Shown one piece after another: positions 2,055 to 19,955 of a stretch of 64,000 bases of DNA. Position 1 is the stretch's first letter; the number at the start of each line of letters is the position of its first letter. The stretch lies in NCBI GenBank assembly GCA_003151815.1, contig PLYN01000012.1, positions 183-64,182 on the forward strand, given 5' to 3'. Made by a program: the position numbers and the translations under genes. The notes beneath the pieces were generated by a model. It saw only the letters and a list, made by a program, of their open reading frames with translations, did not search any database and had not been told where the DNA came from. This DNA comes from Bacteroidota bacterium (lineage in GTDB: Bacteria; Bacteroidota; Bacteroidia; 2-12-FULL-35-15).

Positions 2055-2126
2055 CTATTTGCGGTGTCCCATCACTGAACCCGGATAAAAATAGAAAAAA
2101 TAATATGTGTTAGTAGTTGTCATCAT
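2055..2126 (-). CDS. Tyr/Phe-rich leader peptide MMTTTNTYYFFYFYPGSVMGHRK (23 aa)
   Basis: Seven consecutive Tyr/Phe codons (TAT TAT TTT TTC TAT TTT TAT) directly upstream of a terminator and the tyrA-DAHPS/CM operon. Confidence 0.88.
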   Translation of the reverse strand: MMTTTNTYYFFYFYPGSVMGHRK

Positions 2127-7601: not shown

Positions 7602-8903
7602 TTAACCTTCTAAAACAGCTTTCACTTTTTTATCCATCAAGGCTTTTATCATTTGGTTGCATAAGTTACCTATGCTACCTTCATGCACATGGTTGATCGT
7701 TTCAAGAGCCTCGAAATTACCTTTTTCAATGGCATTTCCGACATTCTTATATGCTTCACGAAATGGAACACCTTTTAACACCTGTGCATTAACCACTTCT
7801 ACACTAAACATCAAAGCATATTTTTTATCTTTTAAAATATCTGATTTTACCTGAACACTCTCTAGCATAAAAGAAGTGATTTCTAAACAATCCTTCAACG
7901 TTGTTATTGCAGGGAACAAACTTTCTTTCGTTAATTGCATATCACGATGATACCCCGAAGGCAAATTATTGGTAAGCATTGTTAACTCATTTGGTAAAGC
8001 CTGAATTTTATTGCACTTCCCACGCACCAATTCAAATACATCCGGATTTTTTTTGTGCGGCATGATGCTGCTTCCTGTTGTTAAATTATCAGGAAAAGTT
8101 AAAAATGCAAAATTCTGATTCATGTATAAACACACGTCATACGCCAGTTTTGAAAGCGTTGCAGCTATCGAAGCCATTGCCATTGCTGCAATTTTTTCTG
8201 TTTTACCGCGCGTCATTTGCGCATACACCACATTGTAATTCATTGTTTCGAACTCCAATATTTTTGTTGTCATTTCACGGTTAAGTGGAAACGACGAGCC
8301 ATAGCCTGCTCCGGAGCCTAATGGATTTTTATTGGTGACATGATATGCAGCAGTGATGAGCTCCATATCGTCCATCAAGCTTTCTGCATAAGCGCCAAAC
8401 CACAAACCGAATGAAGATGGCATCGCTATTTGCAAATGCGTATAACCCGGCAATAATTTATCTTTGTGCTCTTCACTTAAATCAATTAATTGATTGAACA
8501 AATTAGAAACAAGTTTTACAATTTCTTTCAATTCATATCGCACATACAATTTAATATCTACCAATACCTGATCATTGCGTGAACGACCACTGTGTATCTT
8601 CTTCCCTGCTTCACCAATGCGTTTGGTCAACATCAGCTCTATCTGTGAATGAATGTCTTCTACTCCTTCTTCAATTACAAATTTACCAGCCTTAATTTCT
8701 GTTAGAATATTTTTTAATTCTTTATGTATGGAAGCCAACTCCTCTTTGGTCAACAAACCAATGGACTCCAGCATTTCAGTATGAGCAAGAGAACCTAACA
8801 CATCAAATTCAGCCAAAGATAAATCCAATTCATTGTCCTTTCCAACCGTAAATTTTTCAATCAGATTGGATGTTTTATTGCTTTCTTTTTGCCAGAGTTT
8901 CAT
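7602..8903 (-). CDS. argH: Argininosuccinate lyase
   Basis: HSGRSRNDQ, GYTHLQ and GSSIMPHKKNPD signature. Confidence 0.97.
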   Translation of the reverse strand: MKLWQKESNKTSNLIEKFTVGKDNELDLSLAEFDVLGSLAHTEMLESIGLLTKEELASIHKELKNILTEIKAGKFVIEEGVEDIHSQIELMLTKRIGEAGKKIHSGRSRNDQVLVDIKLYVRYELKEIVKLVSNLFNQLIDLSEEHKDKLLPGYTHLQIAMPSSFGLWFGAYAESLMDDMELITAAYHVTNKNPLGSGAGYGSSFPLNREMTTKILEFETMNYNVVYAQMTRGKTEKIAAMAMASIAATLSKLAYDVCLYMNQNFAFLTFPDNLTTGSSIMPHKKNPDVFELVRGKCNKIQALPNELTMLTNNLPSGYHRDMQLTKESLFPAITTLKDCLEITSFMLESVQVKSDILKDKKYALMFSVEVVNAQVLKGVPFREAYKNVGNAIEKGNFEALETINHVHEGSIGNLCNQMIKALMDKKVKAVLEG

Positions 8904-9021: not shown

Positions 9022-9597
9022 TTAAAAATCTAATTTTGGTGCAGCTTTTTTTACCCCTTTTCTAACGTTATCTCCCGTTTCAATTAAAAACGAAAAATGT
9101 GTGGTAGACTTAAATTTATAACCATAATCGCTCTTTTCTTTCAATAAAAAATACATGTCTCCTTTTTTCATCGTTACATTCATTTCCTCTGTATCCAACA
9201 TCTTTGCGATGTTTTCCTCACTATATACTACACCATCAGATAATTTATATCCTTCCTTTTTTTTCTGAGCAACAATTTGAGAAAGAAATTCTGCCACCGC
9301 CTTTTTATTGGTAGCACCCTTAACGGATATTCGAACAGATTCAGGAAGCAATTCCGAATTACGCGATATTATCACATCTCCATGCAACTCAACATATGAT
9401 GTAGAAAAATCTACTGTTGGCTTACCTTTATATTTTTCAGCAAGTTTATCAATTTCTCTTTTGCCTGTTGATGTTTTACTTTTCGCAGTTTTTTTAGTCG
9501 TACTTGTTTTTTTAGTTGTTGTTTTTTTAGTTGTGCTTTGACCATATACTGAAATTGTAAACAGCAAAAGCATTATTAGGTGGTTTCTTATTTTCAT
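9022..9597 (-). CDS. Hypothetical secreted protein with Lys/Thr-rich N-terminus
   Basis: Signal peptide followed by a TTKKTTTKKTSTTKK low-complexity tract. No family recognised. Confidence 0.75.
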   Translation of the reverse strand: MKIRNHLIMLLLFTISVYGQSTTKKTTTKKTSTTKKTAKSKTSTGKREIDKLAEKYKGKPTVDFSTSYVELHGDVIISRNSELLPESVRISVKGATNKKAVAEFLSQIVAQKKKEGYKLSDGVVYSEENIAKMLDTEEMNVTMKKGDMYFLLKEKSDYGYKFKSTTHFSFLIETGDNVRKGVKKAAPKLDF

Positions 9598-9689
9598 AAT
9601 ATTTAGTTTAAAGTTGGAAGTAAAAGTTATCTTGAAATTACGTTTTTAAATATTAAATATAGGTACAAAAACATTTCAATTTATATCAT

Positions 9690-9697
9690 TATATTTG
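9690..9697 (+). promoter_or_regulatory. -7 promoter box for the small-peptide unit
   Basis: TATATTTG, 46 nt upstream of the ATG at 9744. Confidence 0.65.
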
Positions 9698-9743
9698 TAA
9701 AGCAGTCAGGTGTTAATTAAATAATTAATCAAATTAAATTAAC

Positions 9744-9833
9744 ATGAAAATGGAAATTAAAACTGAGTTTGTTCAGTCCCTAACGACACTAGTAATAGCT
9801 GTAGTTATACTGATATTAGTTGCAAAACACTAA
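9744..9833 (+). CDS. Small hydrophobic peptide MKMEIKTEFVQSLTTLVIAVVILILVAKH (29 aa), type I toxin-like
   Basis: Below the ORF-track cutoff. A-rich start context, a single TM-like helix, an upstream promoter box, and downstream hairpins with a U-tract. Confidence 0.7.
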   Translation: MKMEIKTEFVQSLTTLVIAVVILILVAKH

Positions 9834-9871
9834 AACTCATCAGGAGTCTGATTTGAAATAACTCCTCCTGA

Positions 9872-9907
9872 GTGTAACTAGTAGTTATACCACTTGACTG
9901 TTTTTTT
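9872..9907 (+). terminator. Probable 3' end of the small-peptide transcript
   Basis: Hairpin gtgtaact-agt-agttatac, then cacttgactg and T7. Confidence 0.55.
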
Positions 9908-9956
9908 ACACTAATATCTTTCCAAACTTCTTTCATTATGCAATTATTTAATAGAA

Positions 9957-11105
9957 TTATTTCTTTTTTGTTTTTTCTTTCCCACCCATCTTATAAGCTA
10001 ATCCAATAATACAAACTATTCCAAATACTATTCCTCCCAATATTTTAAAATGATTACTTAGGTATAATCCTACAATTGTTAATGTATATACAGTAAAGTC
10101 AGCGATTGCTCCCAGATAATCACCTAAATAATATTTTGCATCGCATCTATAATAATAAGTATGATAATTTGCAGGATAATTTTTAGGTTCAAGTTCAATA
10201 ATTTTTGTATAATCAACTATTGCTCCTTGATAATCTCCTAAAGCCATATATGTATCGCCTCTATCATAATAAGCTTGCAAAATATCAACTCTCCGAAATT
10301 CAGAAGAGTCAAATTCAATAATTTTTGTATAATCAACTATTGCTCCCTGATAATCTTTTAAAGCCTTTTTTGCATTGCCTCTATCATAATAAGCGCGATA
10401 AAATTCTGGCTCAAGTTCAATAGATTTAGTAAAGTCAGCTATTGCTCCTTGATAATCTCCTAAAGCCATATATGTTTCGCCTCTATCAAAATAAGTACGA
10501 TAATATTCATCAGGTTTATTAAATTCAATACTTTTTGTATAATCAACTATTATTTCCTGTTCTCTCTGATAATCGTATAATTCATTACGATAGTTACTTA
10601 TTCTTCCATAACAATCATAATATTTTCCACCTTTCACTTCATAAATTTCTTCAGATTTGTTGCCGTTTATAATGATTAAAGTTCCATTTAATGGGTCAAA
10701 TTGAAATTTACCCAATTTTGCCATTGCTGATTGTCCTAACAAAAGAGGCGCTGAAATATTATTAACAACGGTAGCTTCAACATTGTAAATTACGTTTCCT
10801 GCAAATTCAATTTTGCGTATTATAATATTAGTGCCTACTGAAATATCACCTGTTGCGTCTGAATAATATTTCCTACCTATAATATCTTCTTTGCTTAAAT
10901 ATCCATTTTTTAACATAAAGAGTGCCTCAGTTAATGAAATAGAAACTTCACTGGCTCCTGTATCAAAAATGAATTTTAGTTTAAGGTCATTGACTTTGCA
11001 AGGAACTACATAAACACCATTTTCTTTTTGCATTCTAATAGTAGACTGTCCATAAAATGGAATACCAATAAGCAATGAAAGGAATAATAAAGTATGTTTA
11101 TACAT
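9957..11105 (-). CDS. Clan AA (retropepsin-like) aspartyl protease fused to TPR repeats and a C-terminal hydrophobic segment
   Basis: Signal peptide, FIFDTGAS catalytic motif, LLGQS, repeated AYYDRG..Y..LGDYQGAI.DYTK.IE TPR units and a hydrophobic C-terminus. Confidence 0.88.
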   Translation of the reverse strand: MYKHTLLFLSLLIGIPFYGQSTIRMQKENGVYVVPCKVNDLKLKFIFDTGASEVSISLTEALFMLKNGYLSKEDIIGRKYYSDATGDISVGTNIIIRKIEFAGNVIYNVEATVVNNISAPLLLGQSAMAKLGKFQFDPLNGTLIIINGNKSEEIYEVKGGKYYDCYGRISNYRNELYDYQREQEIIVDYTKSIEFNKPDEYYRTYFDRGETYMALGDYQGAIADFTKSIELEPEFYRAYYDRGNAKKALKDYQGAIVDYTKIIEFDSSEFRRVDILQAYYDRGDTYMALGDYQGAIVDYTKIIELEPKNYPANYHTYYYRCDAKYYLGDYLGAIADFTVYTLTIVGLYLSNHFKILGGIVFGIVCIIGLAYKMGGKEKTKKK

Positions 11106-11126
11106 ATTTTAAATATTTAAAATCAA

Positions 11127-11402
11127 CTATGTATTTGAAAGACCTTTAGAGCTAAATCTTAAATTTTTAATTAATATATCAAACTCTATTTCATTTTCAC
11201 TTATTAATCTTACTTCATCATTAGAGATATTTTGCAAACGAATGCCTGGCACAACTTTATCATCTGGAATTTTATCTGAGTTACGATATTTCTTATTTGC
11301 TTTTTCAATAATCTTAACATTTTTTTGTTTGATAGCTATATGGTGCTTTGTAACTATATCCTCATAAATGGCAAATTTGTTTTTATCTACGTTATGTTTC
11401 AT
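11127..11402 (-). CDS. Hypothetical protein (91 aa), possibly a gene fragment
   Basis: ATG-initiated ORF in the accessory islet. No motif recognised. Confidence 0.45.
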   Translation of the reverse strand: MKHNVDKNKFAIYEDIVTKHHIAIKQKNVKIIEKANKKYRNSDKIPDDKVVPGIRLQNISNDEVRLISENEIEFDILIKNLRFSSKGLSNT

Positions 11403-11814: not shown

Positions 11815-11849
11815 AAACTTTAAACTTTTAAACTTTGAACTTTAAACTA
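11815..11849. repeat. Heptamer tandem array (AAACTTT flavour), single arm starting at the M20 stop codon
   Basis: aaacttt aaacttt taaacttt gaacttt aaacta. Confidence 0.8.
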
Positions 11850-12944
11850 TATCAAACTTGAAATCATTTTCACATACAAATCCACTCCTTCTTTAATTTC
11901 ATCAAGATAAATAAATTCATCTGCTGTGTGCGAACGTCCTGAAAAACCGGGACCTAACTTCAAGGATGGAAAATTCATCAAAGCCTGATCAGAAGTAGTT
12001 GGAGAACCATAAGTAGTTCTACCCAATTGTAATCCTGCCTGCACTATGGGGTGATTCATGCTGATGGAAGATGGTGTTAACCGCAATGAACGGGGTTTTA
12101 CGTCACAGGTAACATGTTCTTTAATGATGTCAAATATTTCTTGATTTTTATAAGCATCTGTAATACGAACATCCACCACAAAATCACATTTATCAGGTAC
12201 CACATTGTGTTGTGAACCTGAGTGAATAACTGTTACAGACATTTTAATTGGCCCCAACGTATCTGATACTTTAGGGAATTTATAGGTGATGAACCATTCA
12301 ATATCCTTCAATGCTTTATATATCGCATTTTCGCCTTCTTCTCTGGCAGCGTGTCCGGATTTACCATGACTGGTGCAATCAAGCACCATTAAACCTTTTT
12401 CAGAAACTGCTAAATGCATTTGAGTAGGTTCGCCAACAATTGCAAATTCAACATTATCCAGTTCAGGTAAAATAAGTTCTATGCCATTTAATCCTGAAAT
12501 TTCTTCTTCTGCGGAAGCAGCAAAAACAATGTTATACGGCATGTTTTCATTTTCATAAAAATACATGAAGGTTGCCAATAGAGATACCAAAGGTCCACCG
12601 GCATCATTGCTTCCCAGTCCGAATAGTTTTCCGTCCTCAACAATTGCTTCGAACGGATTTTTTGTATAACCCGAATTCGGTTTTACGGTATCGTGATGAG
12701 AATTTAATAAGATGGTCGGCAACCCTTCCTTATAATGCTTGTTACGCGCCCACACATTGTTCATCATGCGAAATGCCGTAATGCCTTTCGATTTCAAAAA
12801 ACGTTGCAACAAGTCCGCAGTCACGTTTTCTTCTTTACTGAATGACGGAATCGGAATTAACTGTTTAAGTAATTCTATTGAATCATCCGTTACCTGATTT
12901 ATTTTATTTTGATCAAGCGATAAGCTTTGTTCCTGTGTTCCCAT
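11847..12944 (-). CDS. argE: M20 family acyl-ornithine/acyl-citrulline deacylase (ArgE-like)
   Basis: LLNSHHDTV, GLGSNDAGG, AEEEISG, GEPT and SHTADE metallopeptidase motifs, inside the arg operon. Confidence 0.85.
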   Translation of the reverse strand: MGTQEQSLSLDQNKINQVTDDSIELLKQLIPIPSFSKEENVTADLLQRFLKSKGITAFRMMNNVWARNKHYKEGLPTILLNSHHDTVKPNSGYTKNPFEAIVEDGKLFGLGSNDAGGPLVSLLATFMYFYENENMPYNIVFAASAEEEISGLNGIELILPELDNVEFAIVGEPTQMHLAVSEKGLMVLDCTSHGKSGHAAREEGENAIYKALKDIEWFITYKFPKVSDTLGPIKMSVTVIHSGSQHNVVPDKCDFVVDVRITDAYKNQEIFDIIKEHVTCDVKPRSLRLTPSSISMNHPIVQAGLQLGRTTYGSPTTSDQALMNFPSLKLGPGFSGRSHTADEFIYLDEIKEGVDLYVKMISSLI

Positions 12945-13707
12945 TTCCGTTTGTAATAGTTATTAAATCTTTTGAATGTGCAATCATTACAGCCGACACA
13001 CCATTTCTGATCGCATCGAATGCATTGTCGAGTTTAGGTATCATTCCTTTAAAAATAACACCTTCCGAAAGTAAATCTTTATATGAATTCTGCGTAATGA
13101 TATTGATCACTGAACCATCATCTTCCACATCCCTCAATACGCCCTTCTTTTCAAAACAATAGTTGAGTTGCACATCGTATTTTTTTGAAAGTGCAACAGC
13201 CAAAGCCGAAGCAATCGTATCTGCATTGGTGTTTAATAATTGTCCTTCTCCATTGTGCGTAATGGCTGAAAAAACCGGTGTTATGTCGTTTTCCAAAAAA
13301 ACAGAAATCATTTCTACATTCACTCCAGAACTTTCAATGTCGCCAACGAAACCATAATCAATATCTTTCACCTTACGCTTGCTTGCATTGATTGTGTTAG
13401 CATCTGCACCTGACAGCCCAATTGCATTGCATTTTTTTGATTGCAAGGCTGCAACAATTTGCTTGTTGATCAAGCCGGCATAAACCATGGTTGTCACCTT
13501 TAATGTCTCCGCATCAGTAATCCTTCTTCCATTTACCAATTCCTGTTCAATGCCCAAGCGCTTTGCTAATTCAGTCGCGACTTTTCCACCGCCATGAACC
13601 AATATTTTCAAATCGGAGATCCTTGAAAAATCAGAAAGAAATTTTTCTAATTCCTTTGGTTCATCTATTACGTTTCCACCGATCTTTATGACGTGTAATT
13701 TTTTCAT
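12913..13707 (-). CDS. argB: Acyl-glutamate kinase
   Basis: VIKIGG, VHGGG, LLNTNADT and GMIPKL. Start placed at MKKLHV. Confidence 0.95.
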   Translation of the reverse strand: MKKLHVIKIGGNVIDEPKELEKFLSDFSRISDLKILVHGGGKVATELAKRLGIEQELVNGRRITDAETLKVTTMVYAGLINKQIVAALQSKKCNAIGLSGADANTINASKRKVKDIDYGFVGDIESSGVNVEMISVFLENDITPVFSAITHNGEGQLLNTNADTIASALAVALSKKYDVQLNYCFEKKGVLRDVEDDGSVINIITQNSYKDLLSEGVIFKGMIPKLDNAFDAIRNGVSAVMIAHSKDLITITNGNGNTGTKLIA

Positions 13708-13720
13708 ATACCTCACCACA

Positions 13721-13757
13721 CCTCACCCCCGTCCCCTCTCCACTTGGAGAGGGGGGA
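13721..13757. repeat. CCCCTCTCC-N4-GGAGAGGGG REP-like element
   Basis: cctcaccccc gtcccctctc cactt ggagagggggga in the argF'/argB spacer. Confidence 0.85.
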
Positions 13758-13770
13758 GTAACGAGGATAT

Positions 13771-14721
13771 TTATTTTGTTTCCAATATCTTTTTTAATAC
13801 CGCTTGCGCAGAAAATAAACGATTACTTGCTTGTTGCAAGATCAATGAATTAGCACCATCAAGCACTTCATCACTCACTTCTAAATTTCTACGAACCGGT
13901 AAACAATGCATCACTTTAGCGTTATTGGTCACTTCCAGTTTTTTGTTAGTTAACATCCAACTGCTATCTGTACATGCTATTTTTGCATAGTCCGTGTAAC
14001 ACGACCAATTTTTTACATATACAAAATCAGCGTCTTTTAGTGCTTCCTGTTGATCATAAACTATTTTAGCGCCTTTTGTAAAAGCTTCGCTTAGCTCATA
14101 TCCTTCCGGATGAGTAATCGTAAAATCAACATCCGTTTTCAACATCCATTCACTAAAGGAGTTGGCAACAGCTTGTGCAATGGGTTTAATATGAGGAGCC
14201 CAGGTTAATACTACTTTAGGTTTTTGTTTTTTGTTCCAGTTCTCACGAATAGTAATCACATCCGCAAAACTTTGCAAAGGATGTAAAGTAGAACCTTCCA
14301 TACTTACAACCGGAACAGTACTATATTTTTTAAACTGATTGATTATTTTTTCACTATAATCTTCTTCTTTATTTTTCATGTGTGCAAAACAACGTATAGC
14401 AATTATATCGCAGTATTGCGACAATACAGCTGCTGCGTCGCGTACATGTTCAACAGAAGAACCGTTCATCACCGCACCATCATTCATCTCTAAAGCCCAA
14501 CCCTCTTTATCCATGTTCAATACAATGGTATTCATTCCTAAATTCATCCCAGCCTTTTGAGTACTCAAACGGGTACGCAAACTCGGATTTAAAAATACCA
14601 TTCCCAATGTTTTATTTTTCCCAAGATGAGAAAACGCATAGGGATCCTTTTTAAGCATCAATGCTTCATTCACCATTTCATCGATGTTGGTGACATCGTT
14701 CACTGAAGTAAAAATTTTCAT
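13771..14721 (-). CDS. argF: N-acyl-ornithine carbamoyltransferase (ArgF' type, AOTCase/SOTCase)
   Basis: PSLRT instead of the STRT of classical OTC, HPLQ, LTWAPH and HCLPVRR. Confidence 0.93.
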   Translation of the reverse strand: MKIFTSVNDVTNIDEMVNEALMLKKDPYAFSHLGKNKTLGMVFLNPSLRTRLSTQKAGMNLGMNTIVLNMDKEGWALEMNDGAVMNGSSVEHVRDAAAVLSQYCDIIAIRCFAHMKNKEEDYSEKIINQFKKYSTVPVVSMEGSTLHPLQSFADVITIRENWNKKQKPKVVLTWAPHIKPIAQAVANSFSEWMLKTDVDFTITHPEGYELSEAFTKGAKIVYDQQEALKDADFVYVKNWSCYTDYAKIACTDSSWMLTNKKLEVTNNAKVMHCLPVRRNLEVSDEVLDGANSLILQQASNRLFSAQAVLKKILETK

Positions 14722-14734
14722 TCTTCTTTACTGA

Positions 14735-15862
14735 TTATTTTGATAAAACGCTTTTAAATGCAGCCAAAAAACTATCTATATCTTCTTTTTTAACATTCAA
14801 TGCCGGAAGTATACGTAAGGTATTTTTATCGGATGAAGATCCTGTGAACATTTTATGCTCCGACAATAATTTGTTCCTGATCGGCGCACAAGCATCTTCT
14901 AACTCAACGCCGATCATCAATCCAAGTCCACGAACTTCTTTAACACCTTTTATGCTTTTTAATTCCAGCATTAAATAATTACCCATCGTTTCAGAATGGA
15001 GAAGTAAATTTTCATCTCTGATAACATCCAACACAGCAATTGCAGCCGCACAAGCCAAATAATTTCCACCAAACGTTGTTCCCAACATACCGTGTTTACC
15101 GGGAATATTTGGTTGAATTAATACAGCAGCAACCGGAAATCCGTTACCCATACCTTTTGCAACAGTAATAATATCAGGCTTCACATCTGAATATTGGTGT
15201 GCAAAAAATTTACCCGAGCGTCCGTAACCGGATTGTACTTCATCAATAATTAGCAAGGCTCCAAATTTTTCGCAAAGCGATTTTATTTTTTTTAGAAATG
15301 CTGTTGTTGGAATGTGTACCCCACCAACACCTTGAATTCCTTCAATTATCACAGCACACACTTCATCGTTCATTGCTTTTTCAAAAGCGGCTTCATCGTT
15401 AAAAGGCAAAAATACAATGTTATCGGTCATGTTTACAGGCGCCCATATCTTTGCATCATCAGTTGCAGCAACGGCTAAAGAAGTACGTCCGTGAAATGCT
15501 TTACTGAACGAAATAATTTTTTTCTTTCCTGTATGAAAAGACGCAAGCTTTAAAGCATTCTCATTTGCCTCTGCACCACTGTTACATAAAAATAATTGAT
15601 AGTCGGTATAACCCGAAAGCTCTCCTAACTTATCGGCTAACTCTTCCTGCATTTTTATTTTAACCGAATTGGAATAAAAAGCAATTGCATTTAATTGTTC
15701 TGTTAATTTTTTAACATAATGCGGATGGCTGTGTCCTATAGAGATCACTGCATGTCCGCCATATAAGTCCAGATACTTTACACCATTTTTGTCCCATATG
15801 GTAGAACCTTCAGCCTTTACAGGCTCGATGTCGAATAAGGGATATACGTCGAATAATTTCAT
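14735..15862 (-). CDS. argD: Acyl-ornithine aminotransferase (class III PLP)
   Basis: NSGAEANE, FHGRT, IDEVQSG and AKGMGNGFP. Confidence 0.95.
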   Translation of the reverse strand: MKLFDVYPLFDIEPVKAEGSTIWDKNGVKYLDLYGGHAVISIGHSHPHYVKKLTEQLNAIAFYSNSVKIKMQEELADKLGELSGYTDYQLFLCNSGAEANENALKLASFHTGKKKIISFSKAFHGRTSLAVAATDDAKIWAPVNMTDNIVFLPFNDEAAFEKAMNDEVCAVIIEGIQGVGGVHIPTTAFLKKIKSLCEKFGALLIIDEVQSGYGRSGKFFAHQYSDVKPDIITVAKGMGNGFPVAAVLIQPNIPGKHGMLGTTFGGNYLACAAAIAVLDVIRDENLLLHSETMGNYLMLELKSIKGVKEVRGLGLMIGVELEDACAPIRNKLLSEHKMFTGSSSDKNTLRILPALNVKKEDIDSFLAAFKSVLSK

Positions 15863-15869
15863 ATTTTTT

Positions 15870-16010
15870 TAGTTTAAAGTTAGAAAGTTCAAAGTTTAAA
15901 GTTTCTGTGTTCTCTTTAATTATGAACCTTCATTTTCCATTTTAAAACTTTAAAGCTCATCATTGAAAAGTTCGCCAACTTTAAACTTTCTAACTTTGAA
16001 CTTTAAACTA
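15870..16010. repeat. Heptamer-periodic inverted-arm element (AAAGTTY/RAACTTT) in the argC/argD spacer
   Basis: Arm 15870-15904 tagtttaaagttagaaagttcaaagtttaaagttt; arm 15977-16010 aactttaaactttctaactttgaactttaaacta. Confidence 0.85.
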
Positions 16011-16020
16011 ATTATTTTTT

Positions 16021-17004
16021 CTAAAAATAATTCGCTTTCAATTTCAATCCTGTTGTTTCATCCAATCCAAATGCAAGGTTCATATTCTGAACTGCTTGTC
16101 CGGATGCACCTTTCAATAGATTATCAATACAACTGGTGATCAATAATTTTCCTTGATGCTTTTGCAAATGCAATAAACATTTATTGGTATTGACCACCTG
16201 TTTAAGATCAATTGCAACTTTACTTATGTTTACAAACGGGTGAATATCATAATATGCTTCGTACAGTTTTTGAATATTCTCCAAGCTCATATCGCATTCA
16301 GTGTATAACGTTGCAAGTATGCCGCGTGTAAATGCGCCACGGTATGGAATAAAATTCAGTTCGTTTGTAAACCCTGTTTGCAGTTGTGTTAAGCTTTGTC
16401 CTATCTCCGCTAAATGCTGATGTTCGAATGCTTTATAGATACTCAAATTATTTTGTCGCCAGCTGAAATGCGATGTGGTACTTAATGATTGACCAGCCCC
16501 CGTTGAACCTGTGGTTGCAGTAATATGAACATCAGCCTTCAACAAATGATTTGCTGCAAGCGGCAATAATGCCAACTGGATACTTGTAGCAAAACAACCG
16601 GGATTTGCAATGTAATCAGCTTCTTTTATTTTTTCGCGATTCAGCTCCGGAAGTCCATAAATAAAGGGATTAGCTGCAACTGAACCTGGAGAATTTAATC
16701 GATGATCTTGCGATAGATCAATGAGTTTTATTTCTGGATCGATCTTATTTTCAGCTAAAAACTTCTTCGCTTCGCCATGTCCCGTGCATAGAAACAAAAC
16801 ATCTATCTTATCAGACAAGGTATCTGTAAATTTCAAATTCGTATCACCAATTAGATCTGTATGAATATCGGATATAAATTTCCCTGCATTGCTTTTGCTA
16901 TGTACAAAGGCAATTTCGGCATTGGGATGATTAACAAGTATACGCAAGAGTTCTCCTCCTGTGTATCCCGCACCACCAATAACTCCTATTTTTATTTTTT
17001 TCAT
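16021..17004 (-). CDS. argC: N-acyl-gamma-glutamyl-phosphate reductase
   Basis: GGAGYTGGEL, YGLPE, ANPGCF and DNLLKGASGQAVQNMN. Confidence 0.96.
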   Translation of the reverse strand: MKKIKIGVIGGAGYTGGELLRILVNHPNAEIAFVHSKSNAGKFISDIHTDLIGDTNLKFTDTLSDKIDVLFLCTGHGEAKKFLAENKIDPEIKLIDLSQDHRLNSPGSVAANPFIYGLPELNREKIKEADYIANPGCFATSIQLALLPLAANHLLKADVHITATTGSTGAGQSLSTTSHFSWRQNNLSIYKAFEHQHLAEIGQSLTQLQTGFTNELNFIPYRGAFTRGILATLYTECDMSLENIQKLYEAYYDIHPFVNISKVAIDLKQVVNTNKCLLHLQKHQGKLLITSCIDNLLKGASGQAVQNMNLAFGLDETTGLKLKANYF

Positions 17005-17028
17005 TTGAATTTATTTTTTCTCGCTAAT

Positions 17029-17091
17029 CACGCAAATTTTCGCTGATTTTCGCTGACTTTTTTATCTGCGTTTATCTGCGAAATCTGCGTG
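17029..17091. repeat. 9/10-nt periodic inverted-arm element (CGCAGAT/ATCTGCG flavour)
   Basis: cacgcaaatttt cgctgatttt cgctga ... atctgcg tttatctgcg aaatctgcgtg in the argG/argC spacer. Confidence 0.75.
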
Positions 17092-17096
17092 CAAGT

Positions 17097-18308
17097 TTAT
17101 TTTTTATCAACCGGTAAAGAGCTATTCACCTGGTGATAAATAGCAACCTGGTTACCGAATATTTTAGAAAATCCTTTTACATCATCACCTGTCCAGGCGT
17201 TATTCATTTCGCCATAACTACCGAATTTAGCAGACATCAGATCATGTTCCGACTCAATGCCTGTTAATTGAAAACGGTATGGATAAAGCGTTGCGAAAAC
17301 TTTACCTGTGACATTGGTTTGTGTATCTTCCAAAAATTTTTCTATGTTTCTCATCGTCGGATCAAGGAATTGCCCTTCGTGCAGCCAGTTTCCGTACCAT
17401 GAAGATAATTGTTCCTTCCAATACAATTGCCATTTTGTCAACGTATGTTTTTCTAACAAATGATGTGCTTTAATTATCAAAACAGGCGCAGCAGCTTCAA
17501 AACCAACGCGACCTTTTATTCCAATAATCGTATCACCCACATGCACATCGCGACCAATCGCGTATGCAGAAGCAATTTCATTTAACTTTTGTATCGCATG
17601 AACAGGATTTACAAATACCTCATCATTCACTCCTGTTATTTCACCATTTTTAAAAGTGATCGAAATATTTTCCGTTCCTTCTTTCGTTAATTGCGTTGGG
17701 AAAGCCGACTCAGGTAAAAAATTCTTCGACGTTAATGTTTCTTTCCCACCAACCGATGTACCCCAAATACCTTTATTAATAGAGTATTTGGCTTTCTCTG
17801 CATTAATTTCAACACCATGTGTTTTCAAAAATTCAATCTCTGCTTCGCGCGATAATTTCATATCACGGATCGGTGTGATGATCTCCACATTAGGAATCAT
17901 GATATTAAAAACCATATCAAAACGAACCTGATCATTACCTGCACCTGTACTTCCGTGGGCAACCGCTTCAGCACCAATTAATTTTGCATAGTGGGCTATT
18001 GCCATGGCTTGTGCGATACGTTCAGCACTTACCGAAAGTGGATAGGTATTGTTTTTCAATACATTTCCATAGATCAAATAACGAATAACTGTTTTATAAA
18101 AATTATCTGTTTCATCAATGCATTTAAAAGATTTAACACCCAATGAAAATGCGTGTTTTTCTATTCTCGCAATTTCTGCGGCATCAAAACCACCGGTGTT
18201 AACAGTAACAGCATGAACTTCTAAATTTTTTATTTTTGAAAGATAAACGGCGCAATACGTAGTGTCCAATCCACCACTGAATGCCAATACCACTTTATTA
18301 TTTTTCAT
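17097..18308 (-). CDS. argG: Argininosuccinate synthase
   Basis: VLAFSGGLDT, HGSTGAGNDQVRF and KGRVGFEA. Start placed at MKNNKV. Confidence 0.97.
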   Translation of the reverse strand: MKNNKVVLAFSGGLDTTYCAVYLSKIKNLEVHAVTVNTGGFDAAEIARIEKHAFSLGVKSFKCIDETDNFYKTVIRYLIYGNVLKNNTYPLSVSAERIAQAMAIAHYAKLIGAEAVAHGSTGAGNDQVRFDMVFNIMIPNVEIITPIRDMKLSREAEIEFLKTHGVEINAEKAKYSINKGIWGTSVGGKETLTSKNFLPESAFPTQLTKEGTENISITFKNGEITGVNDEVFVNPVHAIQKLNEIASAYAIGRDVHVGDTIIGIKGRVGFEAAAPVLIIKAHHLLEKHTLTKWQLYWKEQLSSWYGNWLHEGQFLDPTMRNIEKFLEDTQTNVTGKVFATLYPYRFQLTGIESEHDLMSAKFGSYGEMNNAWTGDDVKGFSKIFGNQVAIYHQVNSSLPVDKK

Positions 18309-18318
18309 TTTTTTGAAT

Positions 18319-18999
18319 TTAATATTTAACACCAATTTTTACAGATATCATTTTGTCTACCTTCAACAATAAAGATTGTTTTAAACGCATCCAACGTTCA
18401 TATAATTTTGAATTTATTTTGAAATTATTAGAACTCTGTTCTTCTTTATCATGTTTTTTATCAGCAGGATCATAAAGCATAGCAGTGCACATGCAATTTT
18501 TCCGTTCTTTACTTTTCAAAATTTCAAAATTCACACAACTTTGACATCCTTTCCAAAACTCATCATCTTGCGTAAGTTCCGAATATGTAACCGGCTCATA
18601 TCCCAGATCAGAATTTATCTTCATCACAGCCAATCCTGTTGTTAAACCAAATATTTTCGCATTCGGATATTTCGTTCTGGAAAGTTTAAATACTGTCATT
18701 TTGATCTCCCTTGCCAACCCGCTCTTACGAAATTGAGGAGATACGATCAATCCGGAATTAGCAACATAATTACCATGTTCCCACGTTTCGATATAACAAA
18801 AGCCTGCCCATTCACCTTTGTTAGTGAGAGCAATAACAGCTTTGCCTTCCCGCATTTTTTCGGCAATATAATCAGGTGAACGCTTTGCAATTCCCGTTCC
18901 ACGGGCTTTTGCAGACGCTTCCATTTCATCACAGATCGTTTGCGAATATTTTATGTGTTGCTCTTCTGCAACAATTATTTTGAATTCAGGATTCTCCAT
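18319..18999 (-). CDS. GNAT family amino-acid N-acyltransferase (Bacteroidota ArgA-like, first gene of the arg operon)
   Basis: SAKARGTGIAKRSPDYI, NSGLIVSPQFRKSGLA and FWKGCQSC. Position directly before argG. Confidence 0.85.
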   Translation of the reverse strand: MENPEFKIIVAEEQHIKYSQTICDEMEASAKARGTGIAKRSPDYIAEKMREGKAVIALTNKGEWAGFCYIETWEHGNYVANSGLIVSPQFRKSGLAREIKMTVFKLSRTKYPNAKIFGLTTGLAVMKINSDLGYEPVTYSELTQDDEFWKGCQSCVNFEILKSKERKNCMCTAMLYDPADKKHDKEEQSSNNFKINSKLYERWMRLKQSLLLKVDKMISVKIGVKY

Positions 19000-19028
19000 C
19001 AGAAGAAAATATTAAAGAATGAAACATG

Positions 19029-19052
19029 AAAAATAGCAATGAAACAATGCTA
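19029..19052 (-). terminator. Candidate attenuator terminator before the arg operon
   Basis: Minus strand TAGCATTG-TTT-CATTGCTA then TTTTT, with one U-U mismatch. Confidence 0.45.
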
Positions 19053-19125
19053 AATTCTCGAAAGTTTTAAATAAAGATTTTTGAAAATTGACCTCTACGT
19101 AAGTGGTCTGAATAGAATAGACGAA

Positions 19126-19260
19126 CTATCGTCTGGGAGAATAGGGTACGCGGATTGCAACCGGGGTGGCGGCAATCTTGAATGTAAACAAAACAGCAAT
19201 CGTGCTGAACATCTTGTCAGCTGCTGAAAGGAAGTTGGAAAACAACTTTGCTTTTTTCAT
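19126..19260 (-). CDS. Candidate arg leader peptide MKKAKLFSNFLSAADKMFSTIAVLFTFKIAATPVAIRVPYSPRR (44 aa)
   Basis: ATG-initiated ORF between a TATATTTG box (19313-19320) and the arg operon. It ends AGA CGA TAG inside a 6-bp hairpin. Confidence 0.65.
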   Translation of the reverse strand: MKKAKLFSNFLSAADKMFSTIAVLFTFKIAATPVAIRVPYSPRR

Positions 19261-19435
19261 TTCTTTGCAAATAAAAGAATTAAACTTTAGTTAATTATAA
19301 TCTTTAAGATTGCAAATATACGTTTTTTTGAAAACGTACACATTATTTTTTTGTTGGGGAGATATGGATCATAAATTCATTTTTCAAATATTTATTTCGT
19401 AACTTTACGTTATAAACACTCAAAATAAATAAACA

Positions 19436-19672
19436 ATGTACACTACATATCACTTAACATCGGCACAAGAGGTAAGTTCTGATATATTAGATGCTATTAA
19501 AACTACCTTCAAATCAAAACCAATTACAATCATTGTAGAAGAGGACGAAGGCGACTACGAACTATCTAGCGAGATGAAAAATGTATTGGATGAACGTTTA
19601 AAAGAGGAGGTAAAAACGTATATTTCTTCTGAAGATTCAATAAAACAACTTAACAAAAAATATGGCTTATAA
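19436..19672 (+). CDS. Probable type II antitoxin
   Basis: 78-aa acidic protein overlapping a downstream RelE/ParE gene by 11 nt. Confidence 0.75.
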   Translation: MYTTYHLTSAQEVSSDILDAIKTTFKSKPITIIVEEDEGDYELSSEMKNVLDERLKEEVKTYISSEDSIKQLNKKYGL

Positions 19673-19955
19673 AATTCTTCTTTCGCCAAGGGCGCAAAAG
19701 GAAATTGAAAATGCCATTGATTATTATGCTTTATATAGCACGAAGGCTCCACAAAAATTTGTTTATGCCTTAAAAGACTCCTTCGACATATTAGCTTCAA
19801 ATCCCTTCTTTAACATACGTTACAAAAATATCAGAGGACTTAAACTTAAACGATTCCCCTACTCATTATATTTTGTAGTAAATGAATCAGAAAATACCGT
19901 CCGGATTCTTGCTTGCTTTCATAACAAAAGACATCCTGATAAACATCCCAAATAA
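19662..19955 (+). CDS. RelE/ParE family toxin
   Basis: ILLSPRAQKEIENAIDYY...NPF...KRFPYSLYFVV...VRILACFHNKRHP. Confidence 0.9.
   Translation: MAYKILLSPRAQKEIENAIDYYALYSTKAPQKFVYALKDSFDILASNPFFNIRYKNIRGLKLKRFPYSLYFVVNESENTVRILACFHNKRHPDKHPK

Follow-up and report, generated by a model that had tools for sequence, protein, structure and literature searches.

An open reading frame (ORF) of 44 codons that ends in two arginine codons precedes the arginine biosynthesis operon in the 64,000-nucleotide stretch of Bacteroidota DNA analyzed here (hereafter, the window). We consider it fairly probable that this ORF is a translated leader peptide gene, which reports the arginine supply in cis to the GNAT-argGCDF'BE operon and replaces the ArgR repressor. 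Arginine biosynthesis is the textbook case of control by ArgR; here, the ribosome itself probably senses the supply of arginine in place of this usual repressor.

The arg operon and its upstream region

The main features of the locus, given as positions in the window, are the following.

19320..19313, minus strand: promoter -7 box TATATTTG, matching the Bacteroidota TAnnTTTG
19260..19126, minus strand: leader ORF of 44 codons plus TAG, MKKAKLFSNFLSAADKMFSTIAVLFTFKIAATPVAIRVPYSPRR followed by the stop, ending ...IRVPYSPRR-TAG
19134..19129, minus strand: AGA CGA, the tandem Arg codons directly before the stop of the leader ORF and the proposed sensor
18999..11847, minus strand: arg operon (GNAT acyltransferase, argG, argC, argD, argF', argB, argE)
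18999..18319, minus strand: GNAT acyltransferase gene, the first of the operon
about 7710-8873, minus strand: argH, downstream of argE

The argF' gene of the operon encodes an acyl-ornithine-type carbamoyltransferase. Between argE and argH lie three unrelated ORFs on the same strand (window positions 9022-11402, minus), encoding a 91-aa protein, a 382-aa TPR-repeat membrane protein and a 191-aa secreted Thr/Lys-rich protein, which look like an insertion into the arg cluster. At the other end, a spacer of 435 nt, within which the leader is located, separates the operon from a divergent antitoxin/ParE pair. The latter cassette (19436-19955, plus strand) consists of a 78-aa ORF overlapping a 97-aa ParE-family toxin ORF (Pfam PF05016, E = 1.7e-8) and is probably a type II toxin-antitoxin pair placed directly upstream of the arg promoter.

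The consensus of the -7 promoter element in Bacteroidota is TAnnTTTG, and the ATTTGCA block of the promoter found here recurs in the relatives at an equal distance from the ORF. From the position of this motif a transcript with a 5' UTR of approximately 45 nt is predicted. The leader ORF has a GC content of 45%, as compared to 21% in each of its flanks and 34% in the whole window, in agreement with an earlier remark that the leader is richer in GC than its surroundings. Likewise, the promoter box, the 44-aa ORF, the two further hairpins and the AGACGA-tagt-TCGTCT stem that the sequence-only reading had described are all present on the minus strand where it had placed them. The AUG of the ORF has an A at position -3, which is a positive determinant of initiation in Bacteroidota (PMC6847099). 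As for the two terminal arginine codons, AGA accounts for 30% and CGA for 11% of the Arg codons here; since AGA is common, the possibility of a rare-codon trap was discarded.

Conservation of the leader ORF among the Bacteroidia

The regions upstream of the GNAT gene were gathered from 19 relatives, 80 named genomes and the 68 species that make up the window's family, a family of one genus. Within this genus, the 15 species that carry the operon all have an ORF of 44 or 45 codons ending in PRR-stop, in one copy per genome, with the pattern MKKxKLxxxFLSAADKMF..AVLF....PRR-stop. Outside the genus, ORFs ending in RR-stop were found also in Puia, Ferruginibacter, Flavipsychrobacter, Niastella, Terrimonas, Saprospiraceae and many uncultured lineages; RR-terminal ORFs are spread over the Chitinophagaceae, Sphingobacteriales, Cytophagales and other groups. 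Some leaders end differently: the variants RRGC, RRGF, RRRPGC and RRRPEC occur in Sediminibacterium and other genera, and those of the Cyclobacteriaceae end in ..PLRRxxFFxRV. The sole element common to the C-termini ..PRR-stop, ..VRR-stop, ..RRGC-stop, ..RRRPGC-stop and ..RRxxFFxRV-stop is Arg-Arg or Arg-Arg-Arg.

To put a number on this, we scored upstream ORFs of 20-70 codons at GNAT-argG operon loci of Bacteroidia. An RR within the last six residues is found at 65 of 95 loci, compared with 7 on the reverse strand and 3.4 in dinucleotide shuffles. The sequence-only reading had proposed to look for a terminal xPRR-stop ORF across Bacteroidota, and such an ORF is indeed widespread, against about 3 loci expected by chance; moreover, the conserved ORF and the terminal arginines, whose lack in relatives it had named as the result that would speak against it, are both present in all 15 operon-carrying species of the genus. 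In addition, 401 class-level genomes were searched with a covariance model of the stop-proximal module, which matched once per genome in 15 of them, from nine families; where the frame downstream of these matches was read on, without formal alignment, it starts like a GNAT gene.

The genus itself is heterogeneous in this respect. Only 15 of its 68 species have the leader, and the GNAT gene is found in 8 of 36 sampled; most members may lack the arg operon, being arginine auxotrophs or using a different gene set. Cultured carriers of related leader classes are available, namely Sediminibacterium ginsengisoli DSM 22335 and species of Pedobacter, Algoriphagus and Belliella.

Evidence for selection on a translated product

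The 50 distinct leaders of the RR-stop class were compared codon by codon. They are remarkably uniform in length (42 of them have 42-45 codons), and the R-R pair is present in all 50, while the three stop codons are all in use. The first Arg codon (position -2) is CGA in 27 cases, AGA in 21 and AGG in two, and it is never GGA or UGA; the second (position -1) is CGU in 28, CGC in 20 and CGA in two. The first Arg codon thus varies in its first base with arginine being kept, a pattern of substitutions that indicates selection for arginine as an amino acid. Upstream of the pair, 38 of 50 leaders have Pro at -6, coded by CCC, CCG, CCU and CCA, and the residue at -5 is Phe or Tyr in 36 of them all. 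The use of all four codons for Pro at -6 points to selection on the peptide. In the genus, Pro at -3 (codon 42), which precedes the Arg pair, is also coded by all four Pro codons. These conserved C-terminal residues are limited to the RR-stop class.

The distribution of changes along the ORF was then counted in the genus. From codon 26 to the end, the extra character states number 22, 19 and 37 at codon positions 1, 2 and 3, respectively, third positions being about twice as variable as first and second ones. In the first 25 codons (80 nt) the corresponding numbers are 10, 11 and 12; the equal constraint on the three positions suggests selection at the RNA level in this part. Length differences of the ORF within the genus are frame-keeping 3-nt indels, and the start, frame, length and terminal RR are kept where the RNA sequence differs. 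Overall, these patterns indicate selection on a translated product and on its arginines in particular.

Regulatory setting

The ArgR domains PF02863 and PF01316 are absent in all 61 genomes searched, i.e., the window's own genome, which is 77% complete, and 60 relatives from 25 families, 48 of which are at least 90% complete. The control for this search, Bacteroides thetaiotaomicron, was positive. Rho is encoded in the genome. The assembly contains only 16 tRNAs, so that its tRNA-Arg inventory is uninformative.

A second leader was seen in the same window, upstream of tyrA. This Tyr/Phe leader (2055-2126, minus strand) has 23 codons, MMTTTNTYYFFYFYPGSVMGHRK (MMTTTNTYYFFYFY...), and is followed by a terminator with a 12-bp stem and U8 at about 1984-2015; it is a canonical aromatic amino-acid attenuator. 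Its presence in the same genome means that ribosome-mediated attenuation belongs to the repertoire of this organism.

RNA structure of the leader

The whole leader folds better than its shuffled versions (z = -3.1; none of 100 shuffles was as good), and the same holds for the stop-proximal hairpin pair (z = -2.4) and for the last hairpin (z = -2.6). Its elements, in transcript order, are listed below.

19248..19232, minus strand: hp1, AAGUUG-uuuuc-CAACUU, codons 5-10
19226..19186, minus strand: P2, CAGCAGCUGA / UCAGC-(acgau)-UGCUG, then UUUUGUUU, codons 12-25, terminator- or pause-like
19177..19153, minus strand: P3, GAUUGC-(12 nt C-rich loop)-GCAAUC, codons 28-36
19134..19119, minus strand: stop-spanning hairpin AGACGA-uagu-UCGUCU, 6 bp, the 3' arm being box B
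19108..19090, minus strand: H, GACCACU-UACGU-AGAGGUC (GACCACUUACGUAGAGGUC), then AAUUUUC, with a UACGY loop
19059..19028, minus strand: H2, with the stems GAGAA/UUUUC (outer) and UAGCA.UG/CA.UGCUA (inner) and a U5 run; the hairpin UAGCAUUGUUUCAUUGCUA plus U5 is at 19052..19029

Covariation was counted on an alignment of 16 sequences, and the counts ignore phylogeny. The stem of hp1 is invariant or altered through G-U pairs only, and covariation is neither for nor against it. In P2, two inner pairs are compensated (G-C to A-U and U-A to C-G), and a P2-like hairpin with U5-8 is found within the ORFs of other genera. The DNA palindrome TCAGCAGCTGA was considered as a repressor operator and rejected, since substitutions disrupting it are matched by compensating ones in the partner strand of the P2 RNA. 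In P3, all six pairs have changed on both sides; the constraint is on the helix, which leaves the peptide free to vary there. Similarly, five of the seven pairs of H show double changes, and its UACGY loop is constant over nine families despite differing stems.

Around the stop codon, the picture is more nuanced. The stem drawn earlier over Arg-Arg-stop is a perfect 6-bp helix in the window, but the full stem is present in only 4 of 16 relatives, an ACG:CGU core being what remains elsewhere. Box B reads (G/U)CGUA in most relatives, and this CGUA box, which begins 1-3 nt past the stop (2 nt for box B in the window), is invariant across families. Sequence rich in C and poor in G makes up the end of the ORF and the 20 nt that follow the stop.

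The two downstream hairpins are weak candidates for an intrinsic terminator. In the window, H has a stability of -5.8 kcal/mol and is followed by U4; 7 of 16 sequences have no such U-tract. H2 is located about 30 nt before the GNAT start. When the whole spacer was folded, a hairpin at this position was found in most of the 15 genus members (-6 to -13 kcal/mol), with unrelated sequences and followed by U-rich sequence, with no clean U-run in most of them. Therefore, the terminator-like hairpin with U5 that had been noted before the first arg gene exists in the window, but its U-run is not a conserved trait.

Other leader classes have structures of their own. In the Chitinophagaceae and allies, a covarying 6-8-bp hairpin followed by U5-8 lies inside the leader ORF, at an almost constant 29-32 nt upstream of the terminal Arg pair, and the A-rich start region of the leader pairs with a GGGUUUUU run in a long stem. 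Leaders of the RRGC/RRGF type (Sediminibacterium and others) contain a near-invariant 40-nt hairpin, CUGAUAGG-ACGAGCAACUGGCACUUGCC-CCUAUCAG, with the stop codon in its 5' arm; a ribosome at the Arg codons permits its formation and one at the stop prevents it, and at some of these loci a short hairpin and a U-run come after it. A pairing between the leader start AAGAAAUGAAA and the conserved GUUUCAUUCUU before the GNAT start was also considered, and it was discarded as no better than shuffles in most sequences. Finally, the search of the whole window against Rfam at the gathering score gave no hit, and in the region 18900-19500 no family, the T-box included, had a relevant match up to E = 10.

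A proposed model for arginine sensing by the leader

We take the tandem Arg codons as the sensor because they are the one feature common to all leader classes. In the mechanism that we propose, RNA polymerase would pause at P2 and the adjoining U-tract and resume once the leading ribosome has melted P2; this would keep transcription and translation synchronized. When arginyl-tRNA is scarce, the ribosome would halt with AGA or CGA in the A site, covering the Arg codons; in this position it would expose box B and remain on the C-rich end of the ORF. The stop-spanning hairpin could then not form, box B would be free to contact the 5' arm or the loop of H, Rho would be unable to load, and the polymerase would read through into the operon. 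Conversely, with plentiful arginine the ribosome would reach the stop, where its footprint would hide box B, and then depart. The vacated leader would fold, box B pairing with the Arg codons and H and H2 being formed, and transcription would terminate prematurely, by way of the weak U-tracts that follow H or H2 or by way of Rho. The positions of the elements are suggestive in this respect: a ribosome at the stop would cover box B with its footprint, and one held at the first Arg codon would not reach it.

The output step may be a weak intrinsic terminator, Rho or a peptide-mediated arrest, and several observations bear on this choice. The earlier proposal of a translation-coupled attenuation is supported by the conserved ORF, its terminal Arg codons, the coding-type substitutions and the lack of ArgR; on the other hand, a search of the leader for a canonical terminator/antiterminator pair gave none. 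A classical antiterminator was rejected upon folding, as a ribosome fixed at the first Arg codon, at the second or at the stop leaves H and H2 intact in all 21 sequences. Box B is complementary to H over no more than 3-5 bp, or 7 bp in one family; compared with shuffled box B, the mean z is only -1.2, and no covariation was found for this contact. Against classical attenuation speaks also the Tyr/Phe attenuator of the same genome, which has a strong terminator, unlike the arg leader. Furthermore, P2 and its U-tract, which make up the best terminator-like element of the leader, are located upstream of the Arg codons, so that stalling at these codons cannot regulate P2. For the leaders of the Chitinophagaceae, we considered stalling at internal Arg codons as a way to mask the terminator inside the ORF and set it aside, the footprint being just short.

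Frequent stops at the U-tract of P2 would release an RNA of about 120 nt (19186-19305, minus strand) consisting of the 5' UTR and the first 25 codons. This RNA, extremely conserved in the genus, could conceivably act in trans. The attenuator RNA rnTrpL of the Sinorhizobium trp operon is known to do so.

Alternative explanations

The main competitor of this model is a metabolite-sensing arrest peptide, which we regard as possible but rather unlikely. According to this explanation, the nascent chain ...[R/K/P]-[V/I/T]-P-[F/Y]-x-[P/V/I]-R-R together with free L-arginine, bound in the exit tunnel or in the peptidyl-transferase center, would slow release at the stop; the parked ribosome would hide box B, or block or enable downstream events, and the operon would be repressed at high arginine, as with fungal AAP, TnaC or SpeFL. 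The synonymous variation with which the C-terminal motif is kept (Pro -6 and Phe/Tyr -5), the narrow range of ORF lengths, the position of RR immediately before the stop in the largest class and the fact that in both main classes the stop codon belongs to the loop or an arm of a hairpin all agree with it; indeed, the conserved C-terminal motif is a surplus to a pure tRNA-sensing model. However, in the other classes RR lies 2-8 codons before the stop within unrelated C-termini (RRGC, RRRPGC, RRxxFFxRV), all three stop codons are used, and what is common to all classes is the Arg codons alone, as a hungry-codon sensor needs. To our knowledge, the metabolite-sensing arrest peptides described so far do not depend on codons of the amino acid that they sense. 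The universality of the Arg codons in otherwise differing C-termini favors a response to arginyl-tRNA scarcity over such an arrest. The arrest also forms part of a bolder and unlikely proposal, in which the motif P-[F/Y]-x-x-R-R-stop and hairpin H, whose loop would mimic the tRNA-Arg(ACG) anticodon loop besides being complementary to the CGUA box, constitute a new arginine switch common to ArgR-less Bacteroidia. It would operate through arginine-arrested release, through a factor recognizing the anticodon loop (ArgRS- or TadA-like), or through a CGUA:UACG contact that reads the state of arginine or tRNA-Arg. The loop, U-UACG-Y, does contain the UACG core of that anticodon loop and can pair with the CGUA box after the stop, and the UACG core is the motif reported for A-to-I editing of E. 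coli mRNAs by TadA. This likeness could be a real mimic or a by-product of pairing with an Arg codon.

Two further explanations were weighed. A structured RNA read by a protein or RNA acting in trans, recognizing the UACGY loop of H and the CGUA box, with an ORF that merely couples translation or is incidental, would account for the equal constraint on the three codon positions over the first 80 nt, for the covariation of P2, P3 and H, for the free variation of the peptide over P3, for the invariance of loop and box across nine families while the stems of H change, and for the resemblance of the loop to the tRNA-Arg(ACG) anticodon loop. Yet ACG is part of any sequence that pairs with an Arg codon, the ORF has retained its start codon, frame, length and terminal RR even where the RNA sequence has changed, neither the T-box nor any other Rfam family matches the leader, and our analysis identified no candidate binding protein; we therefore judge this explanation quite unlikely. 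Lastly, the ORF might encode a small protein with a function of its own, for example membrane-associated, co-transcribed with the arg operon, or it might be a chance ORF of a GC-rich structured spacer. The peptide is hydrophobic in composition, with a basic N-terminus and a hydrophobic center, and a collection of 5.8 billion proteins contains it in six gene calls, all unnamed and without annotation. But the peptide is not conserved in its middle part, which tracks the RNA helix instead, the ORF is strictly bound to the arg operon in one copy per genome, and no Pfam family matched the peptide; a chance origin is refuted by conservation, and terminal RR at 65 of 95 loci, with 3.4 expected, is far too frequent to be accidental. 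Taken together, this last pair of explanations is very improbable.

Significance and comparison with known systems

Among leader-peptide attenuators, we know of cases for Trp, His, Phe, Leu, Thr, Ile/Val and Cys-tRNA synthetase and of none for arginine; a search of the full-text literature gave no description of an arginine leader peptide, either in Bacteroidota or for arginine biosynthesis at large. The system proposed here is an extension of leader-peptide control to a new amino acid, with an atypical architecture. A large part of the Bacteroidia combines the lack of ArgR with a conserved Arg-Arg mini-gene before the arg operon, the carriers being Chitinophagaceae, Sphingobacteriales, Cytophagales and several uncultured freshwater lineages. 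The leader offers a testable answer to how these bacteria, which are abundant in soil and freshwater, regulate arginine synthesis. Its architecture is unusual (44 codons, an internal terminator-like hairpin, sensor codons at the very end, a conserved C-terminal peptide and the lack of a classical antiterminator) and may reveal another way in which the position of a ribosome is turned into an output. On the practical side, the leader element would improve annotation and could serve as an arginine-responsive genetic part for Bacteroidota.

The arg leader, whose translation is suggested by its substitution pattern, resembles trpL, hisL, pheL, leuL, thrL and ilvL of E. coli and Salmonella in being a short ORF that follows the promoter and precedes a biosynthetic operon, in carrying tandem codons, two as in trpL, for the amino acid that the operon makes, and in its hairpins: the one inside the ORF, with its U-tract, could be a pause site, and further ones lie between the ORF and the first gene. 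Unlike these classical attenuators, it has 44 codons and is largely structured RNA, its regulatory codons are the very last two, it has no strong terminator or convincing antiterminator, its C-terminal peptide is conserved, and its output may be Rho-dependent.

A length of 44 codons is shared with the pyrBI leader of E. coli, an ORF that runs through a terminator-like hairpin and U-tract which a close ribosome can suppress. The pyrBI leader senses UTP through polymerase pausing. In the arg leader, the internal hairpin is located upstream of the Arg codons, and it cannot be the arginine-dependent step.

Fungal AAP, like TnaC, is encoded by an upstream ORF and holds the ribosome at or next to the stop; AAP does so in response to arginine and represses a gene of the arginine pathway. 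Both AAP and TnaC share with the arg leader an upstream ORF with a conserved peptide; they differ in that they sense the free amino acid without needing its codons and have no sequence similarity to the arg leader, the universal feature of which is the tandem Arg codons. As for the output, TnaC of E. coli works through Rho (PMC3299997).

The precedent for two consecutive Arg codons as an arginine sensor is orf34 (SpeFL) of Salmonella and E. coli, an ORF of about 34 codons upstream of speF, in which ribosome pausing at two consecutive Arg codons reports arginine, translation counteracts Rho, and the output is achieved by alternative mRNA folding in a non-classical manner (PMC6386406; bioRxiv 10.1101/604074). 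SpeFL differs from the arg leader in that it controls ornithine decarboxylase, i.e., polyamine synthesis, senses also ornithine via the nascent chain, belongs to the Gammaproteobacteria and has no sequence similarity to it.
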